From the NCBI GenBank assembly GCA_029261035.1, contig JAJDCD010000022.1:16063-80062 (forward strand): DNA of 64,000 bases, written 5' to 3'. The translations under genes were made by a program, and so were the position numbers. Under the pieces are notes generated by a model. It was not told where the DNA came from and did not search any database. It saw only the letters and a program-made list of their open reading frames with translations. Positions 13,248 through 32,711 of this stretch are shown here, in pieces; positions within the stretch are counted from its first letter, which is position 1, and every line of letters begins with the position of its first letter. The stretch comes from Candidatus Omnitrophota bacterium (GTDB lineage Bacteria > Omnitrophota > Omnitrophia > Omnitrophales > JACROU01).

Positions 13248-13263
13248 TGTGACCCATGTCACA
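13248..13263. promoter_or_regulatory. perfect CRP-type box TGTGA-CCCATG-TCACA, class-II position relative to TATACT −10 (13285-13290)
   Basis: Seen in sequence. Centre of the box to the −10 first base is 29.5 bp, the class-II geometry. It sits 82 bp upstream of the narC-like start. Confidence 0.65.
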
Positions 13264-13344: not shown

Positions 13345-14136
13345 ATGAAGATAAATTTGTTGAGATTCTCAATTTCTCTATTTGTTTTGCTGGTATGTTT
13401 TCATTCTGGTAAGGCATTTGCTATCGATGAAGATATGGTGGATATTGACACGTCGGTTCAACTTTATGTACAGAACTGTTCTGGCTGTCATACCGTTGGA
13501 GGAGGAGAGCTGACGGGCCCTGACTTAAAGGATGTTTCTACATGGTCCCAGAATGATCTATTTCCGGCAGTAAAGAGAATGGAGAAAGAGGTAGGGCCTT
13601 TAACGGATGAAGAAATTCAGAGTTTGGTAGATTTCTTAAAGACTCCAGATGCGGGAGAACGTGTAAAAGCAGAAGAAGCAAAGGTTTCTATGAAGTTCCT
13701 GTCCCAGATGTCACCCGCAGATTCGGAGTTAGGAAAAGAATTATTTTTTGGCGAGAAAAGTTTTGAGAATAAAGGCTTAGCTTGCATTTCCTGCCACGGG
13801 ATATCGGATTACCAAGGAGGCCATTTAGGTCCCGACTTAACAGGGATTTACAAGAAAATGGGTGAAACGGCTTTAGTTTCTGCTAATGAAAAAGCTAGCT
13901 TTAAGATTATGCGAGCGGCTTATAAAGATCACGCTATTACAAAACAAGAAGCGCTCCACTTAACCGAGTTTATGAAAAAAGTTTCTGAAGATCCAAAAAC
14001 GGCATCGGAGTTTAATCCTGTTGTATGGATAGGCTCAGGGTTAGCCTTATTATTTTTTATTGTTCTTTTATTTATACGACCTAAAAGAAAAAAAAGCACA
14101 AGACATAATTTAATTAAAAAAACGAAAAAAGGGTAA
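13345..14136 (+). CDS. membrane-anchored dihaem cytochrome c (NarC-like)
   Basis: Signal peptide, two CxxCH motifs (CSGCH, CISCH), C-terminal TM helix and basic tail. First gene of the nar operon, as in Thermus narCGHJIK. Confidence 0.8.
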   Translation: MKINLLRFSISLFVLLVCFHSGKAFAIDEDMVDIDTSVQLYVQNCSGCHTVGGGELTGPDLKDVSTWSQNDLFPAVKRMEKEVGPLTDEEIQSLVDFLKTPDAGERVKAEEAKVSMKFLSQMSPADSELGKELFFGEKSFENKGLACISCHGISDYQGGHLGPDLTGIYKKMGETALVSANEKASFKIMRAAYKDHAITKQEALHLTEFMKKVSEDPKTASEFNPVVWIGSGLALLFFIVLLFIRPKRKKSTRHNLIKKTKKG

Positions 14137-14139
14137 ATC

Positions 14140-17100
14140 ATGAGTTGGATAAAAGATATTTTTTCACCTAAAGAAAGATCCTGGGAAGATTTTTATCGCA
14201 ATCGTTGGGCTTATGACAAGATTGTTCGGAGTACTCATGGTGTAAACTGCACCGGATCTTGTAGTTGGAATATTCATGTAAAGCAGGGGATTGTTACGTG
14301 GGAAATGCAAGCTTTGGACTACCCTCAAATTGATAAACAAATTCCTCCTTACGAACCTCGAGGATGTCAGAGAGGGATTTCTTACTCTTGGTATATCTAT
14401 AGCCCTTTAAGAATTAAGTATCCATTAGTGAGAGGGGTTCTTTTTGATTTGTGGAGAGAAGCTAAAAGAAAATATCCAACGGATCCTGTCAAAGCCTGGG
14501 AATCCATTGTAACGAATGAAAAGTCTAGAAAAGAATACCAACAAGCTCGAGGCAAGGGAGGTTTTAGAAGAGTTTCTTGGGATGAAGTCAGTGAGATTAT
14601 GGCTGCAGCTAATCTTTATACAGTGAAAAAATATGGGCCAGACCGATTGGTTGGATTTTCTCCAATTCCGGCGATGTCTATGATTAGTTATGCCGCAGGA
14701 GCTCGTTTTATGCAGCTTATGGGTGGTGTGGCTATGTCTTTTTATGATTGGTATTGTGATTTACCCCCTGCTTCTCCAGAAGTTTGGGGTGAGCAGACCG
14801 ACGTGGCTGAAAGTGCGGATTGGTATCAATCTAGAATGATCGCTGTTGTGGGATCTAATGTATTGATGACGCGTACGCCCGATGCGCATTACTTAGTCGA
14901 AGTGAGGCATCGTGGAAGTAAAGTTGTTGTTTTTTCTCCAGATTTTAGTCAAACCTCAAAAATTGCTGACGAATGGGTTCCAATTCACCAAGGACAAGAT
15001 GGTGCTTTTTGGCTTGCTGTAGGGCATGTTATTTTGAAAGAGTATTTTGTTGATCAAAAAACGGATTTCTTTTTGGATTATCAAAAGAAGTATACGGATG
15101 GACCTTTTCTTGTGGTTCTAAACAAGGGTGATGACGGAGTTTTTAAAGCGGGGTCTTTTTTAAGAGCTTCTGACTTTAAAGAAACACAAGATGAAGAAAA
15201 TGGAGAATGGAAACTTTTTGTTTGGGATCAAAAAACAAATAAACCGGCTATGCCAACAGGAACTGTAGGACATCGTTGGCAGGAAAAGAAAGGGGAATGG
15301 AATCTTAAAATGGAAGATTCTAAAACAGGAGAAAAACTGGATCCTGTTTTGTTTTTTGAAGGAAAAAATGCGGAGCAGGTTTCTGTTCATATGGACGATT
15401 TCTCTCAAGGGTTTGAAACGCAAAGTTTAGAACGTTCTATGTGTGCTCGGAAAATCAAAACGAAAGATGGGGAAGTGTATGTAACCACTTCTATGGAGCT
15501 GATGTTGGCTCAATATGGTGTTAAAAGATCAGAAAATGCTGAAGGGTTATGGCCAGATAGTTATGAGAATGATCTGGTGTATACGCCTGCTTGGCAAGAA
15601 AAGTTTACAGGCATCAAATCTTCAGTAGTGATTAATTTTGCAAGGGATTGGGCTCAGACGGCTATAGAAAGTGAAGGTCGTTGCAGTATTATTATTGGGG
15701 CTGGCGCAAATCACTGGTATCACAATAATCTGATTTATAGAGCGTGTATTAATGCACTCATCTTTTGTGGATGTGTTGGTAAGAACGGTGGTGGTTGGAA
15801 CCATTATGTAGGGCAAGAAAAACTGGCCCCAATGGCTTCTTGGTCTCCTATTGCATTTGGTACGGATTGGGGCGGTCCTCCTCGGCTTCAAAACTCTCCT
15901 TCATTTCACTATATTCATTCGGATCAATGGCGTTATGAGAAAGCATTTGATGAGGTTTGTGCTGTGAGTGAAAAAGATCATCCTATGACAACAGGACATA
16001 CGGCAGATAAGCAGGCTTTGGCTGTTCGTAACGGTTGGCTTCCATGTTTTCCTCAATTTAATAAAAGTAATTTTGATTTAATTAAAGAAGCTCGAGAGGA
16101 TGGAGCAGACGATCCTGGAAAAATAAAAAATTATGTAGTTAAACAATTAAAAGAGCGTAAGCTTTTATTTTCTATGGAAGATCCAGATAACCCCACGAGC
16201 TTTCCTCGTGTTTGGTACATTTGGCGTGGTAATGCTTTGATGTCTTCTGCTAAGGGGCATGAATATTTTTTAAAACATTATTTAGGAACACATTCCAATG
16301 CGATTTCTGAAGAAGTGGCGAAAGAAGATATTAAAGAGGTTGTTTGGCATGACAAGGTAGAGCTTGGAAAAATGGATTTAGTTGTGGATTTAAATTATCG
16401 TATGGATTCCTCTGCACTTTACTCCGATATTGTATTGCCGGCAGCCACTTATTATGAAAAAGATGATTTAAACTCTACGGACATGCATTCTTTTATCCAT
16501 CCTTTACAAGCGGCGGTTCAGCCTTGTTGGGAATCTAAAAGCGACTGGGCTATTTTTCGAGATTTAGCAAAAGCAACTTCTGAAATGTCGGAACAATATT
16601 TTTCAGAACCTGTTGAGGATATTGTTGTAACTCCTTTACTTCATGATACGCCACAGGAAATCACACAGCCCACCGTGAAAGATTGGGCTAAGGGAGAGTG
16701 TGAACCTATTCCGGGAAAAACAATGCCTAATATTCAAGTTGTTCAGCGGCATTATCCTGATGTGTATAAGAAATTTATTTCTTTAGGGCCTAACTATCGA
16801 AATAAGGGGTTGTCAGCTCATGGGTTGAGTTATATGGCAGATGATGAATATGATCGCTTTTGTGAAGAAGAGCCCGTAGAAAAGTGGGATGGAAAGGTCT
16901 ACCCATCTCTTAAAGAAGATAGAGGTGTTTGTGAGATTATTTTAGCTTTTGCTCCAGAAACGAATGGAGAAATGGCTTGTCGCGCTTATGAGGCGGAATC
17001 TAAAAAAACAGGTTTGGATCTCACTCATCTAGCTGAAGACAGCCGTTCCATTAAATATAATTTTAACGATTTAATCGCTTCTCCTAAGAGGGTATTGACG

Positions 17101-17775
17101 ACACCTTATTGGACAGGGGTAACACGAGACAATCGAACGTATAGTGCCTTTTGTCAGAATATAGAACAGTTGATTCCATGGAGAACTTTGACAGGAAGGC
17201 AGCACTTTTATATGGATCATGAGGCGTATCGGGCTTTTGGGGAACATGTTCCTACCTTTAAAATTAGAATGGATGAAAAACAAAGTCGTGATTTGGTTCA
17301 AACAAAAAAAGAACCAGACAGTCTAACTCTAAATTATTTAACTCCACATGGTAAATGGCATATCCATAGTACTTATGGAGACACGCTTCGTATGAAGACG
17401 TTGTCACGAGGAATTGAACCTATATGGTTGAATGATCGAGATGCTGGTTTAGTGGGTGTTTGTGATAATGATTGGGTCGAGGTGACGAATGATCACGGGT
17501 CTGTTGTTACGAGAGCGTGTGTGAGCGCTCGAATTCCAAGAGGTATTTGTTTTATTTATCATGCAGTGGAAAGAACGGTTGGAGTTCCTAAATCACCGTC
17601 GCGTAATTTTAAACGAGCAGGAGGACATAACAGTTTAACTCGAGCTCGATTGAAGCCTTTGTTTATGATTGGGGGATATGCTCAATTTTCATACTTTTTT
17701 AACTATTGGGGTCCTCAAGGAGTTAATAGAGATACTTTTATAAAAATACGCAAACTAGGCAAATTGGTCTGGTAA
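14140..17775 (+). CDS. narG: respiratory nitrate reductase alpha subunit NarG (cytoplasmic nNar type; no Tat signal)
   Basis: 1211 aa. N-terminal HGVNCTGSCSWNIHVKQG [4Fe-4S]/His motif. Molybdopterin oxidoreductase. Confidence 0.95.
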   Translation: MSWIKDIFSPKERSWEDFYRNRWAYDKIVRSTHGVNCTGSCSWNIHVKQGIVTWEMQALDYPQIDKQIPPYEPRGCQRGISYSWYIYSPLRIKYPLVRGVLFDLWREAKRKYPTDPVKAWESIVTNEKSRKEYQQARGKGGFRRVSWDEVSEIMAAANLYTVKKYGPDRLVGFSPIPAMSMISYAAGARFMQLMGGVAMSFYDWYCDLPPASPEVWGEQTDVAESADWYQSRMIAVVGSNVLMTRTPDAHYLVEVRHRGSKVVVFSPDFSQTSKIADEWVPIHQGQDGAFWLAVGHVILKEYFVDQKTDFFLDYQKKYTDGPFLVVLNKGDDGVFKAGSFLRASDFKETQDEENGEWKLFVWDQKTNKPAMPTGTVGHRWQEKKGEWNLKMEDSKTGEKLDPVLFFEGKNAEQVSVHMDDFSQGFETQSLERSMCARKIKTKDGEVYVTTSMELMLAQYGVKRSENAEGLWPDSYENDLVYTPAWQEKFTGIKSSVVINFARDWAQTAIESEGRCSIIIGAGANHWYHNNLIYRACINALIFCGCVGKNGGGWNHYVGQEKLAPMASWSPIAFGTDWGGPPRLQNSPSFHYIHSDQWRYEKAFDEVCAVSEKDHPMTTGHTADKQALAVRNGWLPCFPQFNKSNFDLIKEAREDGADDPGKIKNYVVKQLKERKLLFSMEDPDNPTSFPRVWYIWRGNALMSSAKGHEYFLKHYLGTHSNAISEEVAKEDIKEVVWHDKVELGKMDLVVDLNYRMDSSALYSDIVLPAATYYEKDDLNSTDMHSFIHPLQAAVQPCWESKSDWAIFRDLAKATSEMSEQYFSEPVEDIVVTPLLHDTPQEITQPTVKDWAKGECEPIPGKTMPNIQVVQRHYPDVYKKFISLGPNYRNKGLSAHGLSYMADDEYDRFCEEEPVEKWDGKVYPSLKEDRGVCEIILAFAPETNGEMACRAYEAESKKTGLDLTHLAEDSRSIKYNFNDLIASPKRVLTTPYWTGVTRDNRTYSAFCQNIEQLIPWRTLTGRQHFYMDHEAYRAFGEHVPTFKIRMDEKQSRDLVQTKKEPDSLTLNYLTPHGKWHIHSTYGDTLRMKTLSRGIEPIWLNDRDAGLVGVCDNDWVEVTNDHGSVVTRACVSARIPRGICFIYHAVERTVGVPKSPSRNFKRAGGHNSLTRARLKPLFMIGGYAQFSYFFNYWGPQGVNRDTFIKIRKLGKLVW

Positions 17776-17813: not shown

Positions 17814-19310
17814 ATGGATGTAAGAGCTCAAACAGCAATGGTATTTCATTTGGATAAATGTATTGGATGCCATACCTGTAGTGTGGCATGTAAGAACATT
17901 TGGACTGATCGCCCAGGTGCAGAATATATGTGGTGGAATAATGTAGAAACAAAACCTGGAACGGGTTACCCCACGCTTTGGGAAGATCAGGTTAATTATA
18001 AAGGTGGGTGGGAAGTTACAGACAAGAGAGAACTAAAACTTAAAAGTCAAAACAAGAAAAATTTTTGGCTGAAGATGTTCTATAACCCTAACCAACCTAC
18101 ATTGGATGATTATTACGAACCATGGACTTATGAATATAAGCATTTAACAGATGCTAAGCTAGGAGATGATCAGCCTACAGCTAGACCGATTTCTCAAATC
18201 ACTGGGGAGCCTATTGATATTGAAGCGGGGCCCAACTGGGATGATGATTTATCCGGTTCTCCTATCTATGCCGAAAATGATCCTAATTTAAGCCAATTGT
18301 CAGAAGATGAGAAAAGAATGCTTTTTGAAATCGAAAGTATTTCAATGATGTACTTACCCCGCATTTGTAATCACTGTGCAAACCCAAGTTGTGTAGCTGC
18401 TTGTCCTTCTGGGGCATTGTATAAGCGAGGGGAAGATGGGATTGTACTTGTGAATCAAGATGTTTGTCGTGGTTGGAGAAATTGTGTAGCCGCATGCCCA
18501 TATAAGAAAATTTATTTTAATTGGAAAACAGGAAAATCTGAAAAATGTATTTTGTGTTACCCCCGAATAGAAACGGGGCAGCCTCCAGCATGTTTTCATA
18601 GTTGTGTTGGGAGAATCCGTTATATGGGTGTTTTGCTTTATGATGCAGATCGTGTTGAAGAAGCGATGAAAGCGCCTTTAAATTCTCTTGTGGAGTCGCA
18701 AAGAAGTGTTTTGTTAGATCCTTTTGACCCTGAAGTTATTAAAGGAGCTAAAGAAAACAATATTAGTCCTGAAATGATTGACTCTGCACAGAATTCACCT
18801 GTATGGAATTATGTGATGAAGTGGAAATTAGCCTTACCTCTTCACCCGGAGTTTCGCACACTTCCTATGTTGTACTACGTTCCACCGTTACTTCCTGTAA
18901 TGGGGAAAATAGGGGACGGTATTTACGAGCATAAAACGGAAGACTTTTTTGCTTCAATAGAACAAGCGAGGCTTCCTATGAAGTTTTTGGCTTCTCTTTT
19001 CAGTGCGGGGAACTTAAATGAAATTAGAAGTGTCATGAAAAAACTTTTAGCGATACGACATTTCAAAAGAGCGGAATCTAGAAAAGAATTGGGCTCTGAC
19101 AAGATAAGAAAGATTCTTCATGAATCAAGAATGGACCCAGAAGAAGCAGAAGCAATCTATCAATTAACTTCTTGCCCTGGACCTTACGAGCGATTTGTTT
19201 TACCGCCTCTTCAAAGAGAAGAAGCGATGGAGGGTGGGGAAGAATGCCCTGAGTCTTGTAAAGGGAGTTGTGGCTTAGGAGATGTTCAAACACCAAAGCG
19301 AGGGTTATAA
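17814..19310 (+). CDS. narH: respiratory nitrate reductase beta subunit NarH
   Basis: Four Cys clusters (CIGCHTCSVAC…, CNHCANPSCVAACP…). Confidence 0.95.
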   Translation: MDVRAQTAMVFHLDKCIGCHTCSVACKNIWTDRPGAEYMWWNNVETKPGTGYPTLWEDQVNYKGGWEVTDKRELKLKSQNKKNFWLKMFYNPNQPTLDDYYEPWTYEYKHLTDAKLGDDQPTARPISQITGEPIDIEAGPNWDDDLSGSPIYAENDPNLSQLSEDEKRMLFEIESISMMYLPRICNHCANPSCVAACPSGALYKRGEDGIVLVNQDVCRGWRNCVAACPYKKIYFNWKTGKSEKCILCYPRIETGQPPACFHSCVGRIRYMGVLLYDADRVEEAMKAPLNSLVESQRSVLLDPFDPEVIKGAKENNISPEMIDSAQNSPVWNYVMKWKLALPLHPEFRTLPMLYYVPPLLPVMGKIGDGIYEHKTEDFFASIEQARLPMKFLASLFSAGNLNEIRSVMKKLLAIRHFKRAESRKELGSDKIRKILHESRMDPEEAEAIYQLTSCPGPYERFVLPPLQREEAMEGGEECPESCKGSCGLGDVQTPKRGL

Positions 19311-19313: not shown

Positions 19314-19841
19314 ATGAGCGAAAAAAATGATTATATACAACTAGCAAAGCTTTTGGATTATCCAGATAAAAATTATATCAGTCAGCTAAGAACCATCATT
19401 AATTACTTTCAAGAAAAAAGCCCCGCAACTTCTCGTTTCTTAGAGGACTTTTTATCTCAACTTCTAGATCTGTCTTTGGAGCAAATACAAGAGATACAGA
19501 CAGCAACTTTTGATGTCAATCCTATCTGTGTGCCTTATGTGAGTGTGCATTTGTTTGGAGAAGAAAGTTTTAAGCGTTCTCAGCTTATGGCGGGTTTGGC
19601 GATGGCATATGCAGATGAGGAGTTTGATTCAGGTAAAGAATTAGCAGATCATTTAAGAAATATTCTTAATTTTGCACCTTACTTTAAAGCCGAAGAATGG
19701 GATGAGCTTGTTAGTTTTGTTTTGTTGGATTCAGTTGAAAAGATGCAAGGTAAACTAAAACAGCCGGATCATGTTTTCTTACCCTTATTGAATGCAATTT
19801 TAGAAAGACTGCGTCAAGATTCGCTTATAGGAGTTCTTTAA
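19314..19841 (+). CDS. narJ: nitrate reductase assembly chaperone NarJ
   Basis: 175 aa in the NarJ/TorD family, in its canonical position. Confidence 0.85.
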   Translation: MSEKNDYIQLAKLLDYPDKNYISQLRTIINYFQEKSPATSRFLEDFLSQLLDLSLEQIQEIQTATFDVNPICVPYVSVHLFGEESFKRSQLMAGLAMAYADEEFDSGKELADHLRNILNFAPYFKAEEWDELVSFVLLDSVEKMQGKLKQPDHVFLPLLNAILERLRQDSLIGVL

Positions 19842-21154
19842 TGATGAACCAAATGTTTTTTGTGGGATTGCCTTATTTAGCTTTATTTCTTTTAGTGGCA
19901 GGCTCTATCCTCCGATATGTGTGGAATCCTTTTAGTTATTCTGCGTTGTCGTCTCAGTTTTTAGAGAAAAATGCATTGTTGTGGGGGACGCTTTCTTGGC
20001 ATATAGGAATTTTAATTATTTTGCTTGGTCATCTTCCAGCATTCTTAGTACCCGAACTATGGAAAAGTTTAACTTCCAATTTTGTATTTCTTCTAACAGT
20101 AGAAACTGTGGGAGTGATGGCTTCCATTCTTTGTATTGCAGGACTTATTATTTTAATTGTTAGAAGAGTTGTTTCTGGAAAATTACAGCAAGTAACGACG
20201 GTTATTGATATTCTCTTACTCGTACTTATTTTGTTACAAGTGGTCATTGGTCTTTCGATGGCTCTGATGCATCGGTGGGGAGCTGTATGGTCTACAGGAA
20301 CAACAACACCCTATCTTTGGAGTATTCTTACCTTTCGTCCTGACATTTCTTATATAGAAGAAATGCCTCTTTTAGTTCAAGCTCATATTGTGATGGCCTG
20401 GATTATATTAATGCTCGTTCCTTTCTCAAGATTGGTTCACATATTTTCATTCCCTTTCCAATATTTCTTTCGTCCTCCCCAAAAGGTGGTTTGGGTCAGC
20501 GAGAGGAGGAAAGAACATGATGATTCACTTGTGGTGGTTCAAGAGAGTCGTAGAGACTTTGTTAAAGGGGCTTTGGGATTGTCTGTGGCTGGAGCTTTAT
20601 TGTCCGTAGGGGTTTTGGATAAATTGGCAGGTTTCTTTTATAAACCAGAAGTTTCTGTTGAAGAAGAAAGTAAACTGTTAGAGCAAAAACTAAAACGATT
20701 AGAACAAACAGCAGAAGAACGCACTTATCAGTTAGAAAGAATGAAGAAAGAGTTTATTTACGTATCGCGTCTAAATCAACTGGACATAGAAAAAGGGAAA
20801 TATTTTATTGATTACTTAATGCGTCCTGCTTTAGCGTTTTTGGGTAAGGATGGGCTTCCTATTCTCATATCTGCAAAATGCACCCATTTAGGATGTACCG
20901 TGGGGAGTGAGTTAGATAATCAAGGACGCATATTGTGCCCTTGCCATGTTTCTTATTTTAATATTAATACAGGGATGCCTAATCAAGGGGCTCCAGCTTT
21001 AGATCCTTTGCCTCATTTAGGCTGGGTGATCATGAATGCGAATAACGAGATTATTCTGGAGCAAGATCCATCCGGAAAGAGATATGGAAATGTGAATGTC
21101 AGTAGTATAGACAAAAGCAATCGTGTGTTTATAGCTAAGAAACATAAGGAGTAA
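19841..21154 (+). CDS. narI: NarI (gamma subunit, dihaem b) fused to a C-terminal Tat-anchor-like TM + Rieske [2Fe-2S] domain
   Basis: Residues 1-210 are NarI with His56/66/187/205 at E. coli-equivalent positions. SRRDFVKGALGLSVAGALL is a Rieske-type RR anchor. CTHLGC…CPCHVS are the Rieske boxes. Confidence 0.85.
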   Translation: MMNQMFFVGLPYLALFLLVAGSILRYVWNPFSYSALSSQFLEKNALLWGTLSWHIGILIILLGHLPAFLVPELWKSLTSNFVFLLTVETVGVMASILCIAGLIILIVRRVVSGKLQQVTTVIDILLLVLILLQVVIGLSMALMHRWGAVWSTGTTTPYLWSILTFRPDISYIEEMPLLVQAHIVMAWIILMLVPFSRLVHIFSFPFQYFFRPPQKVVWVSERRKEHDDSLVVVQESRRDFVKGALGLSVAGALLSVGVLDKLAGFFYKPEVSVEEESKLLEQKLKRLEQTAEERTYQLERMKKEFIYVSRLNQLDIEKGKYFIDYLMRPALAFLGKDGLPILISAKCTHLGCTVGSELDNQGRILCPCHVSYFNINTGMPNQGAPALDPLPHLGWVIMNANNEIILEQDPSGKRYGNVNVSSIDKSNRVFIAKKHKE

Positions 21155-21157
21155 TCT

Positions 21158-22264
21158 GTGGCTAAGCAAAGTCGTTTAAAGTATGTAATTGATGCCTTGT
21201 CTGAAAGGCTGCCTATGGAGAAATTAAGCTTTGAATCTATGGTGCAGAAGAAAGAGGTTCCTCTGCATAAAATGAGCTGGGCTTACTATATGGGTGGGTT
21301 GGCGCTCTTTTTCTTTTTGACACAGTTGATTACAGGGGTGATGTTGTTGTTTTACTATGAACCTACGGTTAGTGATGCGCATGCTTCTGTAGAGTATATT
21401 ACGCAACATGTGGTTTGGGGTGATTTGATTCGAAATTTACATACTTGGTCCTCTAGTCTTATGATTCTTTGTGTGATGGTCCATTTGTTAACAACATTTG
21501 CGATGAAGGCATTTGAAGCTCCTCGCGAGTTAACTTGGCTTACCGGTGTTGGCCTTTTAATTATTACTTTTATGTTTGGTTTCACTGGGTATTTACTTCC
21601 TTGGCATCAAATTGCAGTCAATGCGACTAAGGTGGGGTTGCAATCTATTGAATATTTAGGCAATTATCTACCCGGGTTTTTGGCAGAGTGGCCTACGATG
21701 ATTAAAGAGATTATTCAGGGAGGCCCTACTGTAGGACAGGCTACTTTAAGCCGTTTTTATGCGCTTCATGTTGTGATTTTACCTTTATGTTTATTTGGTT
21801 TGTTGGGTCTTCATTTGCTTTCAGTTCAACTTCACGGAATGAGCCAGGGGATTGATAAGCCTTCAAAAAAACAAGAACGCTTTTTTCCATTTTTTGTACT
21901 CAAAGATTTTTCTCTTTGGGGGATTGTGTTTTTAATTACCTTTATTTTGGCTCTCTGTCTTCCGTTTGAATCATTTTTTTCTTTTCCTCTATTTGAACCT
22001 TATGACCCACTGGGATCAACGCCTGATGGAATTAAGCCAGAGTGGTATTTCTTATTTCTTTTTTATCCTCTAGAACTCCTTCCTTTTTGGGTTGTTCTTT
22101 TGGGGTTGATGATTGTGATGGGTGTCTTAACATTTACACCCTGGATTTTCAAAAGTACTTCCAGAAAGATATTAACAATTATTTCACTGTTGTCAGCAGC
22201 ATACCTCATTATTATGACTTTGTTTGGAGGCATAATTTATGAATGGGTTAAAGGGGGACACTGA
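21158..22264 (+). CDS. cytochrome b of bc1/b6f-type complex (full length, PEWY Qo motif)
   Basis: GTG start. Conserved b-haem His residues and …IKPEWYFLFLFYP…. Confidence 0.88.
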   Translation: MAKQSRLKYVIDALSERLPMEKLSFESMVQKKEVPLHKMSWAYYMGGLALFFFLTQLITGVMLLFYYEPTVSDAHASVEYITQHVVWGDLIRNLHTWSSSLMILCVMVHLLTTFAMKAFEAPRELTWLTGVGLLIITFMFGFTGYLLPWHQIAVNATKVGLQSIEYLGNYLPGFLAEWPTMIKEIIQGGPTVGQATLSRFYALHVVILPLCLFGLLGLHLLSVQLHGMSQGIDKPSKKQERFFPFFVLKDFSLWGIVFLITFILALCLPFESFFSFPLFEPYDPLGSTPDGIKPEWYFLFLFYPLELLPFWVVLLGLMIVMGVLTFTPWIFKSTSRKILTIISLLSAAYLIIMTLFGGIIYEWVKGGH

Positions 22265-22266
22265 TA

Positions 22267-22905
22267 ATGAGATGGATTAAGGTTTTATCATTAGTAAGTT
22301 TTCTATTAGGAATCTCTTTTTTATTCCAAGACAACCTTTGTGCTTACCCTGAGTTTCAAGAGTTCTCACAGAAAAATTCAGGACGTTATGTTAACTGTGC
22401 TCTTTGTCATGCCCATCCTGATGGTCCTGAGGGAATTAAGCCAGGGCAGGTAGGTAGTTTGGATGAGGAGGAAAGGCAGTTGTTGAATCAGGCACGAGCA
22501 GCCGTTCAGCCTGGATTTGAAGTTAATAGCCCCATTCTAAATGAGTTTGGCAATGACATTATGAAGCAATTAGGAAAGAAAGAATTTTTATTGTACCGCA
22601 AGTTTCCAGAACGTTTATCTGAAGTGTTAGATCCAAATAGCGATTTAGATAACGATGGAATTTCAGATAGGCAAGAATATTTAGATGGAACTCATCCTTT
22701 AAATAATCAACACGGAAATCCATGGAAGTTATTTAACCATCGATTTTGGAATAATCGTTTTGATATTTTAATTATTGTTTTAGCCACTTTTTTTGGGCTT
22801 TATGGTTTTAAGCATTTGCTTCATTGGCTACATTTTAAGACATCCTCTTTTAATAAGGATGAGGATGAAAGCGAAGATGAGGACAAGGATTCTTATTCCA
22901 TATAA
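22267..22905 (+). CDS. membrane-anchored monohaem cytochrome c (c1-like partner)
   Basis: Signal peptide, CALCHAH, C-terminal TM helix and acidic tail. Confidence 0.75.
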   Translation: MRWIKVLSLVSFLLGISFLFQDNLCAYPEFQEFSQKNSGRYVNCALCHAHPDGPEGIKPGQVGSLDEEERQLLNQARAAVQPGFEVNSPILNEFGNDIMKQLGKKEFLLYRKFPERLSEVLDPNSDLDNDGISDRQEYLDGTHPLNNQHGNPWKLFNHRFWNNRFDILIIVLATFFGLYGFKHLLHWLHFKTSSFNKDEDESEDEDKDSYSI

Positions 22906-22917: not shown

Positions 22918-24405
22918 ATGCAAACACAAGCAACTTTTGATTCCCACAAGGCACTTTTTTTAAATACGTTTGCTTTTACTGTGTGTTTTGCCGTTTGGAT
23001 GTTAAACGGGGTGCTCGTAACCTTTTTAGTAGCAAATCAGGTCTTTGACTGGGGTCCTGTTGAAATAGGTTGGTTGTTGGGGATTCCTGTCTTAACGGGT
23101 TCTCTTTTTCGTTTGCCTGCAGGTATGCTTACGGATAAGTTTGGAGGCAAGCCCATTTATGGAGCTTTGCTTTTAATATGCGCTGTACCTATGTACTTAT
23201 TATCGTACGCTAATGATTTTACCAGTTTTGCTTTATGCAGTTTTGGATTTGGATTAGCAGGGGTTAGTTTTTCTATTGGAATTGCGTTTTCTTCTGTTTG
23301 GTATCCTAAAAATATTCAAGGAACAGTACTCGGCATTTTTGGTGCAGGAAATGCTGGAGCAGCGCTCACAACATTGTTTGCTCCTACCATCTTAAATAAA
23401 TTAACACAAAATGGAATCAATATAGAAGGTTGGAGAATGTTACCAAAGTATTATGCTTTGGTATTGATTGCCACTGCTATTGTGTTTTTTATCTTTTCTA
23501 AAAACAAAAAACCTGCTTCGAGTGGCTTGGGTTGGATTGAGATGTTGAAGCCATTAAAAAATATTCGAGTATGGCGATTTGGGCTTTATTACTTTTTGGT
23601 GTTTGGGTGTTTTGTGGCTTTTTCTCAATGGCTAGTACCTTATTTTGTAAATGTTTATTACTTACCTTTAGTTACAGCAGGAATCTTTGCTTCGCTATTT
23701 AGTTTGCCTTCAGGTGTTATTCGAGCTTTAGGAGGGTGGATGTCGGATAAGTTTGGAGCAAGGAAAGTGATGTATTGGATCCTAGCATCTTCAACCATTA
23801 TTTGCTTCTTGTTAATTGTTCCCAAAATGGATATTTACTCCCCAGGGCAGGGGATTATGGCTAAAAGAGCGGGAGAGGTTGTTGGGGTGACTGATGGTGC
23901 AATTAAAGTAGATACTAAGACTTACACCATGGTTAAAGCCCAGAATAAATTTGATGATTTGGATGATCAAGTTTTGGTATTTCCTTCAAAAGAAGTGTGG
24001 CAAGAAGCAGTTGTTGAGGTGGGTCAAAAAGTAAAACGAAAAGAGTTGTTAGCAAAAGGAATAACCCGAATTCATTTTCAGGCGAATGTATGGATTTTTA
24101 CCGTTCTGGTTATTGCATTAGGGGCTATCTGGGGGATTGGAAAAGCAGCCGTTTATAAACATATTCCTGATTATTTTCCTAACGAAGTGGGTGTTGTCGG
24201 AGGGATGGTCGGAGTTCTTGGCGGGTTAGGCGGGTTTTTCTGCCCGATTATTTTTGGTTATTTGCTAAAAGGAACAGGGCTTTGGACGAGTTGTTGGATT
24301 TTTATGTTCTTTTTATCTTTTCTCTGTCTGTGGTGGATGCATCATGTCATTAGTCATATGTTGAGAAAGAAACAACCCGAATTAGAACATCGAATTGACC
24401 ATTAA
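22918..24405 (+). CDS. narK: MFS nitrate/nitrite transporter NarK1
   Basis: 12-TM MFS in the NNP family, with a long central loop. Confidence 0.85.
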   Translation: MQTQATFDSHKALFLNTFAFTVCFAVWMLNGVLVTFLVANQVFDWGPVEIGWLLGIPVLTGSLFRLPAGMLTDKFGGKPIYGALLLICAVPMYLLSYANDFTSFALCSFGFGLAGVSFSIGIAFSSVWYPKNIQGTVLGIFGAGNAGAALTTLFAPTILNKLTQNGINIEGWRMLPKYYALVLIATAIVFFIFSKNKKPASSGLGWIEMLKPLKNIRVWRFGLYYFLVFGCFVAFSQWLVPYFVNVYYLPLVTAGIFASLFSLPSGVIRALGGWMSDKFGARKVMYWILASSTIICFLLIVPKMDIYSPGQGIMAKRAGEVVGVTDGAIKVDTKTYTMVKAQNKFDDLDDQVLVFPSKEVWQEAVVEVGQKVKRKELLAKGITRIHFQANVWIFTVLVIALGAIWGIGKAAVYKHIPDYFPNEVGVVGGMVGVLGGLGGFFCPIIFGYLLKGTGLWTSCWIFMFFLSFLCLWWMHHVISHMLRKKQPELEHRIDH

Positions 24406-24432
24406 CAACGAGTAAAGTTTAAGGAGTGGAAG

Positions 24433-26028
24433 ATGTCAAAAATTAATATTCCCGATTGGGATGTCGAAAATAATGAGTTTTGGAATAATAAGGGTAAAAA
24501 ACTTGCTTCTAAGAACCTTTGGCTTTCTATTCCTGCATTGCTACTGGCTTTTTCTGTCTGGTTGATGTGGGGGATGGTTATTGTTCAGATGAAAAAGCTG
24601 GGATTTAACTTAGGGCTTCCTGCGGAAACTCCGGAGCATTTAAGGCGAATTAACGAACTTTTATGGACGCTTCCTGCGATTGCAGGTTTGTCTGGAGCAA
24701 CATTGAGGATTCCCAATTCTTTTTTAATTGCTGTTGGGGGTGGACGTAATGTTATTTTCTTAACGACAGCACTTCTTCTAATTCCAACAGTGGCTGCAGG
24801 GGTAGCGTTACAGGATGTGAATACGCCTTTTTTCATTTTTGCTTTATTAGCGGCCTTATCCGGGTTTGGGGGAGGTAACTTTGCTTCTTCCATGTCTAAC
24901 ATTAGTTTTTTCTTTCCTAAAAGAGTCCAGGGAACTTCATTGGGTTTGAATGCAGGTCTTGGTAATTTAGGTGTGAGTGTTATGCAGTTTGTGATTCCTA
25001 TTGTTATTGCAGGAGGAGTCTTTGGAGCTGTGGCAGGTGGAGGTTTACCCTTAGTGGAGGTGGATGGCTCTAAAGCTGTGGGAACTTTGGTGTATATTCA
25101 GAACGCGGCATGGGTTTGGGTGCCTCTCTTAATCATTTCTGTTATCGCTGCTTTCTTCGGTATGAACAATTTGAAGTTTGCAACCCCTGCATTAGGTAAT
25201 TATTTTTTAGAGTTTAGTAAAATTATATTATTGATTTTTTTCGGAGTAGTCGCTGCTGGTTTTGGAGGTTGGTTACTAATTGGTTTAAAATTGAATATGT
25301 GGCTTGTGTTGCCCATTACAATTTTGATAACCGTTCTCTTGATGAAATTCTTATCTCCTGGGGAGTTGAAGGAAAATTTAAATAGGCAGTTTTCAATCTT
25401 TAAAAGTAAGCATAACTGGATTATGACGATTATCTATACGATGACTTTTGGCTCTTTTATTGGATACTCTGCTTCTTTCCCAAAATTAATTCAGGATGTG
25501 TTTGGATACCTACCCGATGGAGGGGTGAACCCAAATGCGCCAAACCCTATGACATGGGCTTTTTTAGGCCCCATGTTAGGCGCTTTAATTAGACCCTTAG
25601 GGGGATGGCTTTCTGATAAAGTCAATAGTGGGTCTAAAGTGACGACATGGAGTACGATTGCTCAGGTAGGTGCGGCGCTTGGAGTTGCTTACTTTATAGT
25701 TCAGGCAAAAGGGGTTGAAACTCCTGAAACTTATTGGTGGCCATTTTTTGTACTATTTATGATTTTATTCATTGCTACGGGCGTTGGAAATGGATCTACG
25801 TTTAGAAGTATTCCATATATTTTTAGTAAAGAGCAAGCGGGCCCTGTACTAGGATGGACCTCAGCCATTGCTGCTTATGGGGCATTTATTATTCCCAAAG
25901 TTTTTGGACAACAAATTAAAGCGGGCCATGCGGAATATGCGCTTTATGGATTTACGGCTTATTATTTGATTTGCTTGCTCCTGAATTGGTATTACTATGA
26001 CCGAAAAAATTCGCTCATTAAATGTTAG
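24433..26028 (+). CDS. narK: MFS nitrate/nitrite transporter NarK2
   Basis: Second NNP-family MFS paralogue in tandem. Confidence 0.85.
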   Translation: MSKINIPDWDVENNEFWNNKGKKLASKNLWLSIPALLLAFSVWLMWGMVIVQMKKLGFNLGLPAETPEHLRRINELLWTLPAIAGLSGATLRIPNSFLIAVGGGRNVIFLTTALLLIPTVAAGVALQDVNTPFFIFALLAALSGFGGGNFASSMSNISFFFPKRVQGTSLGLNAGLGNLGVSVMQFVIPIVIAGGVFGAVAGGGLPLVEVDGSKAVGTLVYIQNAAWVWVPLLIISVIAAFFGMNNLKFATPALGNYFLEFSKIILLIFFGVVAAGFGGWLLIGLKLNMWLVLPITILITVLLMKFLSPGELKENLNRQFSIFKSKHNWIMTIIYTMTFGSFIGYSASFPKLIQDVFGYLPDGGVNPNAPNPMTWAFLGPMLGALIRPLGGWLSDKVNSGSKVTTWSTIAQVGAALGVAYFIVQAKGVETPETYWWPFFVLFMILFIATGVGNGSTFRSIPYIFSKEQAGPVLGWTSAIAAYGAFIIPKVFGQQIKAGHAEYALYGFTAYYLICLLLNWYYYDRKNSLIKC

Positions 26029-26136: not shown

Positions 26137-26904
26137 ATGCCGATTCCACTACAACCCTCAGTCGTTTATGGCCCTATATACTCTCGACGGTTAAATACAT
26201 CCCTAGGGATTAACATTCTGCCAACTGATAGAAAATACTGTTTTTCTAATTGCTTATATTGTCAATATGGCTTTACGGACTTTCTCTCTTTGTCTCAGAG
26301 AAAGCTCAGTTCGATCGATTTTCTAATTAAAAGAATAGAACAAGGCTTTGAAGAACATAAGAAAAAAGGGCTGAAGCCTCATTCCATAACGTTTAGCGGG
26401 AATGGAGAACCTACGGTTCATCCAGAACTTTTCTTTATAGTAAAAGAAGTTAAGAATTTAAGAGATATTTATTTTCCACAAACTCCCATTTCAATTCTCT
26501 CTGATTCTTCAAGGGTTCACTTTAAGAGTGTTCAAAAAGCTCTATCTCAATTTGATTTATGTTATATGAAGCTGGATTCAGGAGATGATGAAATGATGAA
26601 GGTTATTAATGATTCTCGATTTCAGGTTCCTTGGAATAAGAAACTAACGGGTTTGAAAGAAATTTCGAACCTAGCTATTCAAAGTATGTTTTTTTCTACT
26701 CCAGTTAATAATGCTTCTGAAGAGCAGGTAGAGCTTTGGCTTAACAAATTAGAGCAAGTAGCACCAAGCGAAGCTCATTTATACACGATTGACCGTTCTC
26801 CAGCGCATGAGAAAGCAACAGCTGTAAGCAAACAAACGCTTAACAAAATAGCTAAATCAGTAAAGAAAAGAATGGGTGGGGTAGATGTGAAGGTATTTAA
26901 ATAG
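26137..26904 (+). CDS. small radical-SAM protein (CxxxCxxC), function unknown
   Basis: CFSNCLYCQYG motif near the N-terminus, 255 aa. Confidence 0.7.
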   Translation: MPIPLQPSVVYGPIYSRRLNTSLGINILPTDRKYCFSNCLYCQYGFTDFLSLSQRKLSSIDFLIKRIEQGFEEHKKKGLKPHSITFSGNGEPTVHPELFFIVKEVKNLRDIYFPQTPISILSDSSRVHFKSVQKALSQFDLCYMKLDSGDDEMMKVINDSRFQVPWNKKLTGLKEISNLAIQSMFFSTPVNNASEEQVELWLNKLEQVAPSEAHLYTIDRSPAHEKATAVSKQTLNKIAKSVKKRMGGVDVKVFK

Positions 26905-26949
26905 AGCATTAAAATCTTAGGGTTGTAATTTATATAAGGTGGTGATGGC

Positions 26950-28383
26950 ATGAAGATAATATATGTACTTTTAATTGTTGTTATGGGAGTGACAACAAAT
27001 TTATATGCAGAGAATGTAAAAGAACAATTTGCTGTTGATTCTGGAGTTGCCCAACAAGAGAGCGTTGCAAGGTTGCTCGATCGTTCTCTTCAATCGGTTG
27101 ATGATTCTGTAGGAGTTTTGGCAAAACCTTTGGATGTTCTTTTTCAGCCCATTTCCATTTGGGATGAAAATATTACTTTTCAATTAAGTGGCCAATATCG
27201 GTATCGTTTGGAGTTGAGAGATGATTTTAATTTTAATGATGCTCGATTTGAAGATGATGATATTCATTTAATGAGGACTCGTTTAAATGGAAAACTTCAA
27301 ATAGGCCCTTATTTGAAAATTTTTGCACAAGCTCAAGATGCAGAGAGTTTTGCAGGTCGCCAGGCTCATAAATCAAGAGCATTTGTAAACCGATTGGATT
27401 TGAGACAACTTTATGGAGAAGTCATTAGTCCATGGGAAGATATTCCTGTGAGTGTCAAAGTGGGACGTCAGGAGTTGTCTTATGGGGATCAGCGGTTTGT
27501 GGGAGCTTTTAATTGGTCTAATGTTGCAAGGGTATTTGATGCGGTTAAAGTGACAGTGACCCCTGTTTCTTGGTTTAACTTTGATATTTTTCTAAGCCAA
27601 GTTGTTCAAGTTAATCGCAGTCAGCCGGACTCTTCAAATCATAATGATAATTTTTATGGTATTTATAGCACGTTAAAACCATTCCAAGAACACCTGATCG
27701 ACACATTCTTGTTTATACGCCACAATCAGAATCGTGGAATTGTGGGGGAAGTTCCGGGAAGGTTAGGACAGTTAAAAGAGTATACGTTTGGCAACCGTTT
27801 TAAGGGTAAAAAATGGAATTTTGATTATGGATTGGAGTGGGCGTTGCAATTAGGTTCTCGAGCACATGATGAGATTAATGCGTGGGCTTTACACGTCGAA
27901 GCTGGATATACGTTTAAAGATTGCCCTTGGTCCCCGCGATTGTCTTTTGAGTATAACCATGGGTCCGGAGACAGCGATCCTACAGATGGAAAAAATGAGA
28001 ATTTTGATAATTTATTTCCTACAAACCACATGCACTATGGTTATATGGACTTTGCTAGTTTGAGAAATATTGAAAATATCAAACTAGCATTTGATTTAAA
28101 GCCACATAAAAAAATCAAACTAACAACAGCATATCATTGGTTTTTCTTGGATACGACAAACAGTGCTTGGTTTAATGCGGGGCAGGGAGTTATTCGACCT
28201 CGTTCTCCAGGGGCAAGTAACACGATTGGACAAGAGTTAGATCTGACACTTAAGTGGAATATGAACGAACATCTTAATTTATTTGTAGGTTACTCGCATT
28301 TTAATGCAGGCGCTTTTATTAAAGATACAGGAGCAAGTGATAATGCGAATTTCTTCTATGTGCAGTCGACTATTAATTTCTAA
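26950..28383 (+). CDS. outer-membrane β-barrel protein / putative porin
   Basis: Signal peptide, alternating amphipathic β-strands and C-terminal …YVQSTINF (terminal Phe). Confidence 0.65.
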   Translation: MKIIYVLLIVVMGVTTNLYAENVKEQFAVDSGVAQQESVARLLDRSLQSVDDSVGVLAKPLDVLFQPISIWDENITFQLSGQYRYRLELRDDFNFNDARFEDDDIHLMRTRLNGKLQIGPYLKIFAQAQDAESFAGRQAHKSRAFVNRLDLRQLYGEVISPWEDIPVSVKVGRQELSYGDQRFVGAFNWSNVARVFDAVKVTVTPVSWFNFDIFLSQVVQVNRSQPDSSNHNDNFYGIYSTLKPFQEHLIDTFLFIRHNQNRGIVGEVPGRLGQLKEYTFGNRFKGKKWNFDYGLEWALQLGSRAHDEINAWALHVEAGYTFKDCPWSPRLSFEYNHGSGDSDPTDGKNENFDNLFPTNHMHYGYMDFASLRNIENIKLAFDLKPHKKIKLTTAYHWFFLDTTNSAWFNAGQGVIRPRSPGASNTIGQELDLTLKWNMNEHLNLFVGYSHFNAGAFIKDTGASDNANFFYVQSTINF

Positions 28384-28430
28384 ATAAACAAGCAGCTAAA
28401 CTTGGTTTTCTCTGCTTGTCCCGCCAAAAG

Positions 28431-28459
28431 GGCATGGTTTGGGTACTATGCCCTTTTTT
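28431..28459 (+). terminator. rho-independent terminator after porin gene
   Basis: GGGCATggtttgggtactATGCCC followed by TTTTTTA. Confidence 0.7.
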
Positions 28460-28490
28460 ACCTTAATGAGGCTCTATATCTAGGGGGATC

Positions 28491-28510
28491 AATGTGATCT
28501 AGATCACATT
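28491..28510. promoter_or_regulatory. 20-bp perfect palindrome AATGTGATCTAGATCACATT (CRP-type box), class-II spacing to TACAAT −10 (28530-28535)
   Basis: Seen in sequence. Centre to −10 is 29.5 bp; it lies upstream of nrdD. Confidence 0.65.
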
Positions 28511-28581
28511 TTTAACCTTAGATCTTGTATACAATATTTTCTACCTACGATATATAGACACTTTATTCCAAGGAGGGTTTT

Positions 28582-30612: not shown

Positions 30613-30636
30613 AGGTTGCCTTAAAAAGGAGGGGCT

Positions 30637-30798
30637 ATGAGCAAGGAAGCTAATCTTAAAGATGAAGAACGACAAGAGTGTGAAGTTTGGACAAGAGTGA
30701 TGGGGTACCATAGACCTGTTTCAGAGTATAACCTAGGAAAGAAAGGGGAGTACGATGAGAGGCAATGCTTTAGCGAACCTTGTGGAAAAAAGGAGTAG
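30637..30798 (+). CDS. separate 53-aa NrdD glycyl-radical domain ORF
   Basis: Own RBS AAAGGAGG. Translation …TRVMGYHRPVSEYNLGKKGEYDER… matches the class-III RNR Gly-radical motif (T4: RRTCAYLGNPNERGFNLGKNKEI). It is in the same frame as nrdD but separated by two in-frame stops. Confidence 0.6.
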   Translation: MSKEANLKDEERQECEVWTRVMGYHRPVSEYNLGKKGEYDERQCFSEPCGKKE

Positions 30799-31513: not shown

Positions 31514-31681
31514 TTTTTAATTTTAAAAATAAAAATCTCCGATTTTAGTGACCTAAGACCCCTCAGGGTTATGGAAGCTAAAGCGTTTAGGGTTATTTGA
31601 GAAATCATTTAGCCTTCCGAAGATTTAAAGATCAGCCCAGTTAGGGATGATTTCTAAATCCGAATTGAGAAGGAGAAGGAA

Positions 31682-32698: not shown

Positions 32699-32711
32699 AA
32701 GGAGAGTATCA

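Follow-up and report, generated by a model that had tools for sequence, protein, structure and literature searches.

A stretch of 64,000 nucleotides (nt) from a Candidatus Omnitrophota bacterium (GenBank assembly GCA_029261035.1, contig JAJDCD010000022.1, positions 16,063 to 80,062 of the forward strand; hereafter the window) encodes a protein of 437 amino acids (aa) in which NarI, the gamma subunit of respiratory nitrate reductase (Nar), continues into a Rieske [2Fe-2S] protein. The gene belongs to a cassette made up of narC-like, narG, narH, narJ, narI::Rieske, cytochrome b and c212 genes, usually with narK, where c212 denotes a membrane-anchored CxxCH protein of 212 aa. The fusion is frequent in uncultivated bacteria, not rare. 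With NarI and Rieske combined in a single polypeptide, a physical supercomplex of Nar with Rieske/cytochrome b very probably exists. That a full Q-cycle delivers electrons to Nar within it is a further step, which we consider somewhat better than an even bet.

The NarI::Rieske fusion protein

Profile searches recognised both halves of the protein. Residues 3-217 match Pfam Nitrate_red_gam (E=3e-58), and the NCBIfam narI model TIGR00351 is passed with 135 bits (cutoff, 105.6). Residues 311-391 match Pfam Rieske (30.4 bits; cutoff, 20.3), and the curated equivalog models of bc-type Rieske proteins are not reached by the fusion (TIGR01416, for example, gives 27 bits vs 97). Pfam and NCBIfam thus agree with a preliminary description of this DNA, in which a single 437-aa open reading frame (ORF) had been read as NarI joined to Rieske. 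That description had also placed four haem-binding histidines of NarI at positions equivalent to those of Escherichia coli. When the fusion was aligned on chain C of the E. coli structure 1q16, the only NarI matched in a sequence comparison with the PDB, H54, H64, H182 and H200 indeed fell on the haem ligands H56, H66, H187 and H205. These residues lie in helices 2 and 5 and show no variation in 69 aligned homologues. The Rieske boxes CTHLGC (347-352) and CPCH (366-369), disulfide cysteines included, are invariant in the same alignment.

The AlphaFold2 model of the fusion, with a mean predicted local distance difference test (pLDDT) score of 85.5, contains in order five NarI helices, a low-confidence linker, a sixth helix (237-266), a further helix (273-302) and a beta-rich Rieske domain. 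In Foldseek, the N-terminal half matched 1q16_C (TM-score 0.8, normalised to the target), and the matches to the C-terminal part were Rieske proteins. Helix 273-302 was modelled with pLDDT 86-95, and its residues E299 and R300 are invariant. The start codon of the gene is ambiguous. The ATG at 19841 overlaps the stop codon of narJ (TAATG), a second ATG follows at 19844, and an identical database protein (P0001, 433 aa) begins at the third ATG; the domain architecture is unaffected by this choice. Lys86 of E. coli NarI was considered as a marker for loss of the quinol site of NarI, and no conserved lysine occurs at or near this column in the fusion family. However, NarI of Thermus and of Rhodococcus lack the same lysine, so the residue is not diagnostic and was dropped.

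In the E. coli structure 1q16, the C-terminus of NarI is cytoplasmic, and the placement of the haem ligands of the fusion in helices 2 and 5 points to the same orientation. With this end inside and one further helix to follow, the Rieske domain of the fusion would come to lie on the positive (P) side of the membrane. The linker between NarI and the sixth transmembrane (TM) helix, TM6, comprises 35 residues, seven of which are Lys or Arg. The segment S-R-R-D-F-V-K fits the consensus of signals for the twin-arginine translocation (Tat) pathway: R237 and R238 are present in 78 of 78 family members, F240 in 69 and Lys or Arg at position 242 in 66. Among the six helices, hydrophobicity is lowest in TM6 (Kyte-Doolittle value, 1.79, vs 2.05-2.92 for TM1-5), and basic residues follow this helix (K261 in 64 of the 78 members, with R/K frequent at 264, 267 and 270). 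According to Tooke et al. 2017 (PMC5449189), it is features such as these that release a nascent chain from Sec to Tat. Since the twin arginine, the weakly hydrophobic TM6 and the basic residues match their criteria, the fusion is probably a dual Sec/Tat substrate with 5+1 helices and its Rieske domain on the P side. A sixth helix with a twin arginine, taking the Rieske domain to the P side, had been proposed before, and AlphaFold2 and the TM scan agree in predicting it.

The fusion would thereby resemble the dual Sec/Tat proteins of that survey (actinobacterial three-helix Rieske proteins and the Sco3746 family; PMC5449189), in which, likewise, an internal twin-arginine motif comes after Sec-type helices and leads into a last helix of weak hydrophobicity, with basic residues and an extracytoplasmic cofactor domain beyond it. 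Sco3746 even has a dihaem b membrane domain, as does the fusion. In contrast, the surveyed proteins differ from it in helix number, here 5+1, and in the Sec part, here NarI, a protein not mentioned in the survey.

A frameshift or a misassembly could in principle have joined separate narI and Rieske genes, and unfused halves do occur elsewhere, both as stand-alone NarI of the fusion's subtype (P0252 and P0256) and as complete Tat-signal Rieske proteins that share the long helix 273-302 (P0254, P0258 and P0259). However, the in-frame junction is kept in related loci from independent assemblies, including an identical copy of the fusion on a Logan contig and a 78% identical relative (L002) with the same gene order on a JGI contig of 2.17 Mb. 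In addition, the linker residues RPPQKVVW and the RR pair are conserved among homologues. An artefact is effectively refuted by the recurrence of the junction, and we assign it a negligible probability.

A search of 5.8 billion proteins returned 695 relatives of the fusion. Both Pfam domains are present in all of the 120 clusters listed (90% identity), whose proteins are about 435-450 aa long. Apart from the two closest (100% and 78%), the listed clusters are 49-57% identical to the fusion, and those sources that give the protein a name call it "nitrate reductase subunit gamma". When one genome per GTDB species was scanned, at least 344 loci were found to encode a relative, some of which may be free-standing Rieske genes, as the scan patterns were Rieske motifs. 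In the best 80 loci, the match runs from about residue 1 to residues 377-437, except in L077, which is cut by a contig end. All 80 of these reference-genome loci come from metagenome-assembled genomes (MAGs), and the record titles place them in more than 10 phyla. Host groups include Hydrogenedentota, Planctomycetota, Sumerlaeota, Obscuribacterales/Melainabacteria, Verrucomicrobiota, Acidobacteriota, Omnitrophota, Bacteroidota, Myxococcota, Gemmatimonadota and Eisenbacteria, among others.

Conservation extends to the neighbouring genes. In a tblastn comparison of window proteins with 82 fetched loci, cytochrome b was found in 78, c212 in 73, narG in 70 and the narC-like gene in 59, and NarK genes adjoin the cassette or lie nearby in 52-56; the gaps fall mostly at contig ends. 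Identities across phyla are mostly 65-72% for NarG and 60-73% for cytochrome b. Such high identities over so wide a taxonomic range suggest that the cassette has spread horizontally.

The preliminary description had called the fusion unusual and perhaps undescribed. Its rarity has to be given up in view of the many MAGs, and its absence from characterised organisms holds: none of 158 plasmid records with a narI match (from 72,556 plasmids, mostly of cultured organisms) carries a fusion, and the PDB offers only E. coli NarI. No description of a NarI-Rieske fusion was found in the open-access literature searched, and an earlier one elsewhere is possible. Dibrova et al. 2017 mention long cytochromes b, their "clade G′", that belong to large conserved operons with an unknown function; these operons may or may not correspond to the cassette. 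The individual components of the cassette are known, and what is apparently new is their covalent arrangement, together with the c212 subunit and the energetics that would follow.

The cassette and its bc-type module

The cassette genes all lie on the + strand. They are listed below with the regulatory features upstream of them and the parts of the fusion; coordinates are those of the whole window.

11967-12419: cyclic nucleoside monophosphate (cNMP)-binding protein, 150 aa; precedes the Crp/Fnr regulator
12486-13148 (+): Crp/Fnr-family transcription regulator (NCBIfam FixK/CRP/FNR-type matches)
13248-13263 (no strand): CRP-type perfect palindrome, TGTGACCCATGTCACA, 82 bp upstream of the narC-like start codon
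13345-14136 (+): NarC-like membrane-anchored dihaem cytochrome c, 263 aa (Pfam Cytochrom_C, Cytochrome_CBB3)
14140-17775 (+): NarG, cytoplasmic catalytic subunit with molybdenum-bis(pyranopterin guanine dinucleotide) (Mo-bisPGD) (TIGR01580)
17814-19310 (+): NarH, iron-sulfur subunit (TIGR01660)
19314-19841 (+): NarJ chaperone (Pfam PF02613)
19841-21154 (+): NarI::Rieske fusion ORF, 437 aa (Pfam, NCBIfam, AlphaFold2)
19841-20485 (+): NarI domain of the fusion, residues 1-215, five TM helices (Pfam, TIGR00351, 1q16 alignment, AlphaFold2)
20486-20638 (+): cytoplasmic linker, Tat motif S-R-R-D-F-V-K (R237, R238) and TM6 (residues about 239-262)
20657-20746 (+): long charged helix, residues 273-302, joining TM6 to the Rieske fold (AlphaFold2, alignment)
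20753-21154 (+): Rieske [2Fe-2S] domain, residues 305-437 (Pfam, alignment, AlphaFold2, Foldseek)
21158-22264 (+): cytochrome b, 368 aa, GTG start (Pfam PF00033, PF13631, PF00032)
22267-22905 (+): c212, membrane-anchored CxxCH protein, 212 aa (CALCH at 44)
22918-26028 (+): two NarK-type nitrate/nitrite transporters of the major facilitator superfamily (MFS), 22918-24405 and 24433-26028 (Pfam MFS_1)

From the narC-like gene to the second NarK gene, the junctions measure 3, 38, 3, -1, 3, 2, 12 and 27 nt. NarG, NarH and NarI each exceed the curated equivalog cutoffs for NarGHI: NarG, which also contains the FS0 motif HGVNCTGSC, scores 1547 bits (TIGR01580; cutoff, 1084), and NarH 633 bits (TIGR01660; cutoff, 524). 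NarJ lies above the cutoff of PF02613 (26.3 vs 22.2) and under that of TIGR00684 (41 bits vs 59). No RR pair occurs in residues 1-40 of NarG, which therefore has no Tat signal, as had been stated before; with its active site facing the cytoplasm, the enzyme differs from haloarchaeal-type periplasmic-side Nar (pNar). The preliminary description overlooked the narC-like gene at 13345-14136, which belongs to the same cassette. Its product has CSGCH at 45, CISCH at 147 and a C-terminal TM helix (226-244), and Met79 and Met188 are conserved in the alignment of its orthologues.

The nar half of the cassette appears to be a Thermus-type narCGHJI operon to which a Rieske/cytochrome b/c212 module has been added, a kinship that likewise had escaped notice and that is indicated by NarC, NarG and the gene order. 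The narC-like protein is 29% identical to Thermus thermophilus NarC (E=1e-15) in a match that spans both CxxCH motifs and the C-terminal anchor; NarG shows 59% identity to its Thermus counterpart. Among canonical NarI proteins of the plasmid collection, that of T. thermophilus also comes closest (36-38% identity, hits H1-H3), and it shares E88 and the RWGxxW/PYLWS motifs with the fusion. The Thermus locus consists of a Crp/Fnr regulator, a c-type cytochrome, narG, narH, narJ, narI (225 aa) and two transporters (narK/narT). The order of this narCGHJIKT operon (PMC7694296) is the same as in the window, including the position of the Crp/Fnr gene and the two MFS transporters. Both systems seem mobile, Thermus Nar being located on a conjugative element and the window cassette occurring across phyla. 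However, Thermus NarI is a plain protein of 225 aa, and genes for a Rieske protein, a cytochrome b and c212 are missing from the Thermus operon. As the fourth subunit of Thermus Nar, NarC binds to NarI and is needed for the enzyme to mature; its presumed role is to deliver electrons to the reductases for nitrite and NO at times when complex III is repressed (PMC7694296). NarC-Nar is presumed to stand in for the bc complex, which Thermus represses under anaerobic conditions, whereas a bc-type complex is built in here.

Cytochrome b has seven predicted TM helices in a TM scan, haem ligands His95/His109 and His204/His219, and PEWY at 294, and these histidines and PEWY are conserved in 73 orthologues. 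It matches PF00033 with 138 bits. The best PDB match of its N-terminal half is cytochrome b6 (1vf5_A, E=1e-44), the helix-D histidines are 14 residues apart, as is typical of b6, and the b6 motifs VPxH and YxGG of the negative (N) side are conserved. These features indicate a seven-helix type in which b6 and subunit IV are fused, not the eight-helix bc1 type. Of the earlier reading as a bc-type cytochrome b with PEWY, the motif therefore stands and the classical bc1 form does not. The likeness to the b6f complex lies in the N-terminal half, the helix-D spacing and the location of PEWY in a subunit-IV-like part. One difference from b6f and Firmicute-type bc complexes is that a single protein comprises b6 and subunit IV. 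The cysteine that binds haem ci in b6f is absent, its place being taken by Tyr (YYMGG vs YCLGG), and the Rieske protein differs from those of b6f and bc complexes by the 30-residue helix between anchor and head.

The third component, c212, begins with a signal-like helix, carries CALCH at 44 and ends in a TM helix. It had been described as a membrane monohaem cytochrome c, of which the CALCH motif and the TM helix are borne out and membership of a known cytochrome family is not: the profile search gave neither a Pfam cytochrome match nor a significant PDB sequence match, and Foldseek found no PDB fold match (best E=2.5) for the AlphaFold2 model, which is all-alpha (pLDDT, 91.6). The family comprises 278 homologues of about 190-250 aa, called "hypothetical protein" wherever the source names them, and only 3 of the 120 listed contain a Pfam domain (TSP3 repeat). 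C44, C47, H48 and a calcium-type motif, DxDxDG..D..E, are invariant, and a conserved cleavage-type site is followed by Y/H-P-E-F. No invariant Met or second His, and hence no identifiable sixth haem ligand, was found in the homologue alignment. No homology to cytochrome c1, cytochrome f or dihaem QcrC was detected, the resemblance consisting of CxxCH and a C-terminal anchor. Like cytochromes f and c1, c212 would be a third subunit anchored by a C-terminal helix, but it is neither of them, given its all-alpha model and the lack of a PDB match. It may represent a new cytochrome class.

A relationship to cytochrome f was considered, the idea having arisen from the mature N-terminus (YPEFQ…GRxVxCAxCH) and the absence of a conserved Met or His ligand. 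It was rejected because the model is all-alpha, unlike the beta-sandwich large domain of cytochrome f, and because neither fold nor sequence comparison gave a match to any cytochrome; the version of c212 at locus L088 has a different N-terminus. Binding of the haem by the N-terminal alpha-amino group, as in cytochrome f, would be speculative for c212. Weak parvulin-like (E=0.05) and EF-hand-like (E=0.016) matches of c212 were not significant.

The c212 gene always follows this type of cytochrome b gene, with or without nar genes. An exhaustive HMMER search of 1.84 billion representatives for related architectures revealed a free-standing form of the module, also missed by the preliminary description. 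At the P0254 locus, a Rieske protein (224 aa), a cytochrome b (370 aa) and a c212 homologue (190 aa) are encoded with no adjacent nar genes, and are 50%, 66% and 43% identical to the respective window parts. P0263 (locus L088) combines the same TM-plus-Rieske unit with a NarC-like haem domain, which shares 46% identity with the window NarC-like protein over residues 35-124 of the latter, and genes for cytochrome b and a c212 homologue follow. Since the trio exists without nar genes, c212 is best regarded as the complex's own third subunit, and on positional grounds it is a putative functional analogue of cytochrome c1 or f. Taken together, the Rieske protein, the seven-helix cytochrome b and c212 appear to form a distinct family of bc-type complexes, and the window cassette is such a complex joined to a NarC-type Nar.

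Within the loci that carry the free-standing trio, the upstream genes vary. In L086 (8001-10356; the same genes occur in L087), the trio is preceded by monohaem cytochromes of 156 aa and 100 aa, and in L088 (8001-10995) it is the Rieske protein of the trio that carries the N-terminal NarC-like haem domain. Other NarI::Rieske fusions were also found, namely P0261 (422 aa) and P0278 (434 aa), whose Rieske types are CTHLGC…CPCHGG, in which the long helix is missing, and CQHLGC…CCCH. As these types differ from that of the window, fusion of a NarI-like anchor to a Rieske protein seems to have arisen more than once.

Proposed electron route and competing explanations

Covalent fusion, a tight operon and near-universal synteny make physical assembly the natural reading of the cassette. 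The supercomplex put forward in the preliminary description is upheld in this respect, whereas its coupling of the quinol oxidation (Qo) site to Nar is a proposal with live rivals. In our preferred explanation, a Thermus-type Nar (NarC-NarG-NarH-NarI) would be hard-wired to a three-subunit Rieske/cytochrome b/c212 complex. The five NarI helices would be inserted by Sec/YidC, after which the twin-arginine motif would pass TM6 and the folded [2Fe-2S] domain to Tat, so that Rieske reaches the P side. Quinol would be oxidised at the Qo (PEWY) site. The first electron would move from Rieske to the c212 haem, on to the two NarC haems and into the P-side haem of NarI, whose haem pair would carry it across the membrane to NarH and NarG for reduction of nitrate in the cytoplasm. 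The second electron would pass through haems bL and bH to a putative quinone reduction (Qi) site, as in the Q-cycle. The yield would be about 4 charges per two electrons, vs 2 for the classical NarGHI redox loop. Two NarK transporters would exchange nitrate and nitrite, and the Crp/Fnr regulator would turn on the operon together with other anaerobic genes.

The cassette fits this mechanism, since Rieske, c212, NarC and the NarI haems are all supplied as membrane-anchored parts, with one c-type haem in c212 and two in NarC. The P0263 fusion independently puts a NarC-type haem domain beside this type of Rieske protein, which favours the proposed route. There are also precedents. In Streptomyces, Nar1 depends on and co-purifies with the bcc complex, and Falke et al. 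(PMC7931247) proposed a route from the Q-cycle through a dihaem cytochrome c to the P-side haem of NarI, with 4 H+ per two electrons; it is energetically feasible, as menaquinol and nitrate are about 505 mV apart (PMC7931247). The mechanism is the one proposed here for the cassette, and NarGHI is cytoplasmic in both. However, the Streptomyces complexes are encoded apart and their association is non-covalent and biochemically tentative, whereas the cassette offers a gene fusion and dedicated cytochromes. Moreover, the Streptomyces Rieske/cytochrome b belongs to actinobacterial QcrABC, and that of the cassette to a b6-like subfamily of seven-helix cytochromes b.

For haloarchaeal pNar, coupling of Rieske/cytochrome b to Nar is already an established model: NarGH was proposed to receive its electrons from a Q-cycle, and antimycin A inhibits growth on nitrate (PMC2483277, PMC3509893). 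Its nar cluster contains genes for a Rieske protein (NarB) and a cytochrome b (NarC), as does the window cassette (PMC2483277, PMC3509893). In contrast, the haloarchaeal operon as described lists no narI, and NarGH lies outside, whereas NarI is kept and fused here.

Several observations weigh against the Q-cycle route. The role of c212 as electron carrier is suggested by its CxxCH motif, unaccompanied by a recognisable cytochrome fold or an identifiable sixth ligand. The NarI half keeps both haems and could itself still oxidise quinol. Genes for nitrite, NO or N2O reductases (Nir, Nor, Nos) or for an oxidase could be present elsewhere in the host genomes. Finally, a preprint labels the homologous enzyme of Melainabacteria a nitrite/nitrate oxidoreductase (bioRxiv 10.1101/328856).

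In one alternative, the two enzymes would be a co-assembled hub. NarI would oxidise quinol directly, the bc module with NarC would feed periplasmic acceptors such as Nir, NO/N2O reductases or a cbb3 oxidase, and the fusion would ensure only co-expression and 1:1 co-localisation. This agrees with the retention of all haem ligands in a NarI closest to that of Thermus, with the outward flow of electrons to Nir/Nor by which Thermus NarC is thought to replace complex III (PMC7694296), and with the fact that the Rieske/cytochrome b/c212 module works elsewhere without Nar. On the other hand, no Nir, Nor, Nos or oxidase occurs among the 25 commonest Pfam families of 124 flanking ORFs, and if electrons simply had to be passed on to soluble carriers, there would be no need for two membrane-anchored c-type cytochromes with three haems between them. 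To have been kept across many phyla, the covalent fusion would also be a strong constraint if co-expression, already ensured by the operon, were its only purpose. We therefore consider the hub unlikely, though it is the strongest of the rivals.

The absence of the haem-ci cysteine from cytochrome b bears on a different possibility, in which it is the low-potential branch that serves Nar. Rieske, c212 and NarC would then reduce an external acceptor, and haems bL and bH would hand electrons to the NarI haems, and so to nitrate, rather than to a Qi site. The missing cysteine of the b6f Qi site would be in keeping with this, as would the geometry of the fusion, which sets the NarI helix bundle beside the Rieske anchor and hence beside cytochrome b. 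However, VPxH and YxGG are conserved, as expected of a working Qi region, and the scheme needs a second high-potential acceptor, none of which is found in the cassette or among the commonest flanking families. It is improbable in our judgement, clearly more so than the hub.

On the widest reading, the cassette would define a new enzyme class: an obligately Q-cycle-coupled, covalent nitrate reductase with about twice the energy yield, horizontally spread, equipped with a new cytochrome (c212) of unusual haem ligation and representing a 5+1-helix class of Sec/Tat proteins. This wider proposal is tentative, and we would rate its chances at a little under even.

Regulation, neighbouring genes and significance

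Two exact TGTGA-N6-TCACA sites occur in the window, vs 0.06 expected. One is the palindrome upstream of the narC-like gene, and the other (28493-28508) lies 74 bp upstream of nrdD. In L002, a CRP-type site likewise stands before the narC-like gene, and the same pair of cNMP-binding and Crp/Fnr genes is present. The sites, the regulator and the cNMP-binding protein look like a small anaerobic regulon. The FNR box TTGAT-N4-ATCAA was also considered and set aside: it is not enriched (10 vs 5.9 expected), and none was found in the nar promoter region. Generic scans of the window gave 33 promoters (43.5 expected, thus below chance), 16 terminators (14.1 expected, about chance) and no tRNA genes.

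These sites bear on a further explanation, namely that the enzyme operates in reverse, as a cytoplasmic nitrite oxidoreductase (NXR) of the Nitrobacter type. Electrons taken from nitrite would flow out by way of NarI and NarC towards an oxidase; driven by the proton-motive force, the bc part would run backwards and reduce quinone. Judged by their record titles, the hosts belong to lineages known mainly as heterotrophs, not as nitrite oxidisers. The neighbours of the cassette also speak for reduction, comprising a Crp/Fnr regulator, anaerobic NrdDG, genes for molybdenum cofactor (Moco) biosynthesis and two NarK transporters. Because CRP-type sites precede both the nar operon and nrdD, anaerobic nitrate respiration is favoured over aerobic nitrite oxidation. 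NarG, too, passes the narG equivalog model, though Nitrobacter NxrA might do so as well. In support of the reverse direction, a NarC homologue is encoded in the nar-like cluster of Nitrobacter (PMC7694296), and in Melainabacteria a homologue with petB and narK behind it received the annotation of a cytoplasmic NXR (bioRxiv 10.1101/328856). That preprint noticed the gene neighbourhood; it does not mention NarI, and refers to Rieske only for separate petC genes. Overall, reverse operation seems very improbable, even next to a hand-off from the low-potential branch.

Recurrent families among the 124 ORFs that flank related loci are Moco biosynthesis, radical S-adenosylmethionine (SAM) and hemerythrin/ScdA (YtfE-like) repair proteins. 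Hemerythrin together with ScdA_N, indicative of YtfE-like iron-centre repair, occurs in 6 of the 124 (loci L003-L062), and such neighbours would fit nitrosative stress from nitrite accumulation.

Downstream of narK in the window, positions 26137-35562 encode a radical-SAM protein, a 477-aa ORF, NrdD/NrdG, MoaA, MoaC-MoaB, a TauE-family exporter and MoeA, a stretch that looks like an anaerobic-respiration island. In L002, the gene order is identical through NrdD/NrdG, where the fetched locus stops, and the counterpart of the 477-aa ORF has an Alginate_exp (porin-like) domain. Upstream of the cassette, at 1905-6965, lies an Fe-S assembly set of SufB, SufD and SufS. The relatives of SufB at 75-80% identity nearly all bear the label Omnitrophota or Omnitrophica, so that this protein places the organism nearest to Candidatus Omnitrophota. 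If the placement is correct, nitrate respiration would here occur in a phylum usually described as having small cells and limited respiratory capacity.

Of the ORFs of at least 120 aa in the window, 43 of 49 are encoded by the + strand. All 2-kb bins have a positive GC skew, so that the cumulative skew rises monotonically, and the GC content is about 38%. This strand bias and monotonic rise suggest that the window is a long stretch of one replichore with a strong gene-strand bias. Two giant ORFs with TTG starts are located at 41709-51683 (+, 3324 aa) and 59161-63936 (-, 1591 aa).

In the textbook view, Nar takes its electrons straight from quinol and bypasses Rieske/cytochrome b (PMC3509893). 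The conserved fusion is an apparent exception, in that the two enzymes would be physically one in many uncultivated lineages. Because annotations read "nitrate reductase subunit gamma" and "hypothetical protein", metabolic reconstructions miss the module. Its study also offers two testable side products, an unannotated cytochrome family as the third subunit of a bc-type complex and a candidate family for Sec/Tat insertion. If the proposed route is true, the fusion would lend Rosetta-stone support to the tentative coupling of Nar1 and bcc in Streptomyces and, by extension, in mycobacteria. A Q-cycle route would double the energy yield of nitrate respiration, and estimates of growth yield and competitiveness would then change for nitrate reducers in soils, groundwater, lakes and wastewater, which the MAG names suggest as habitats.

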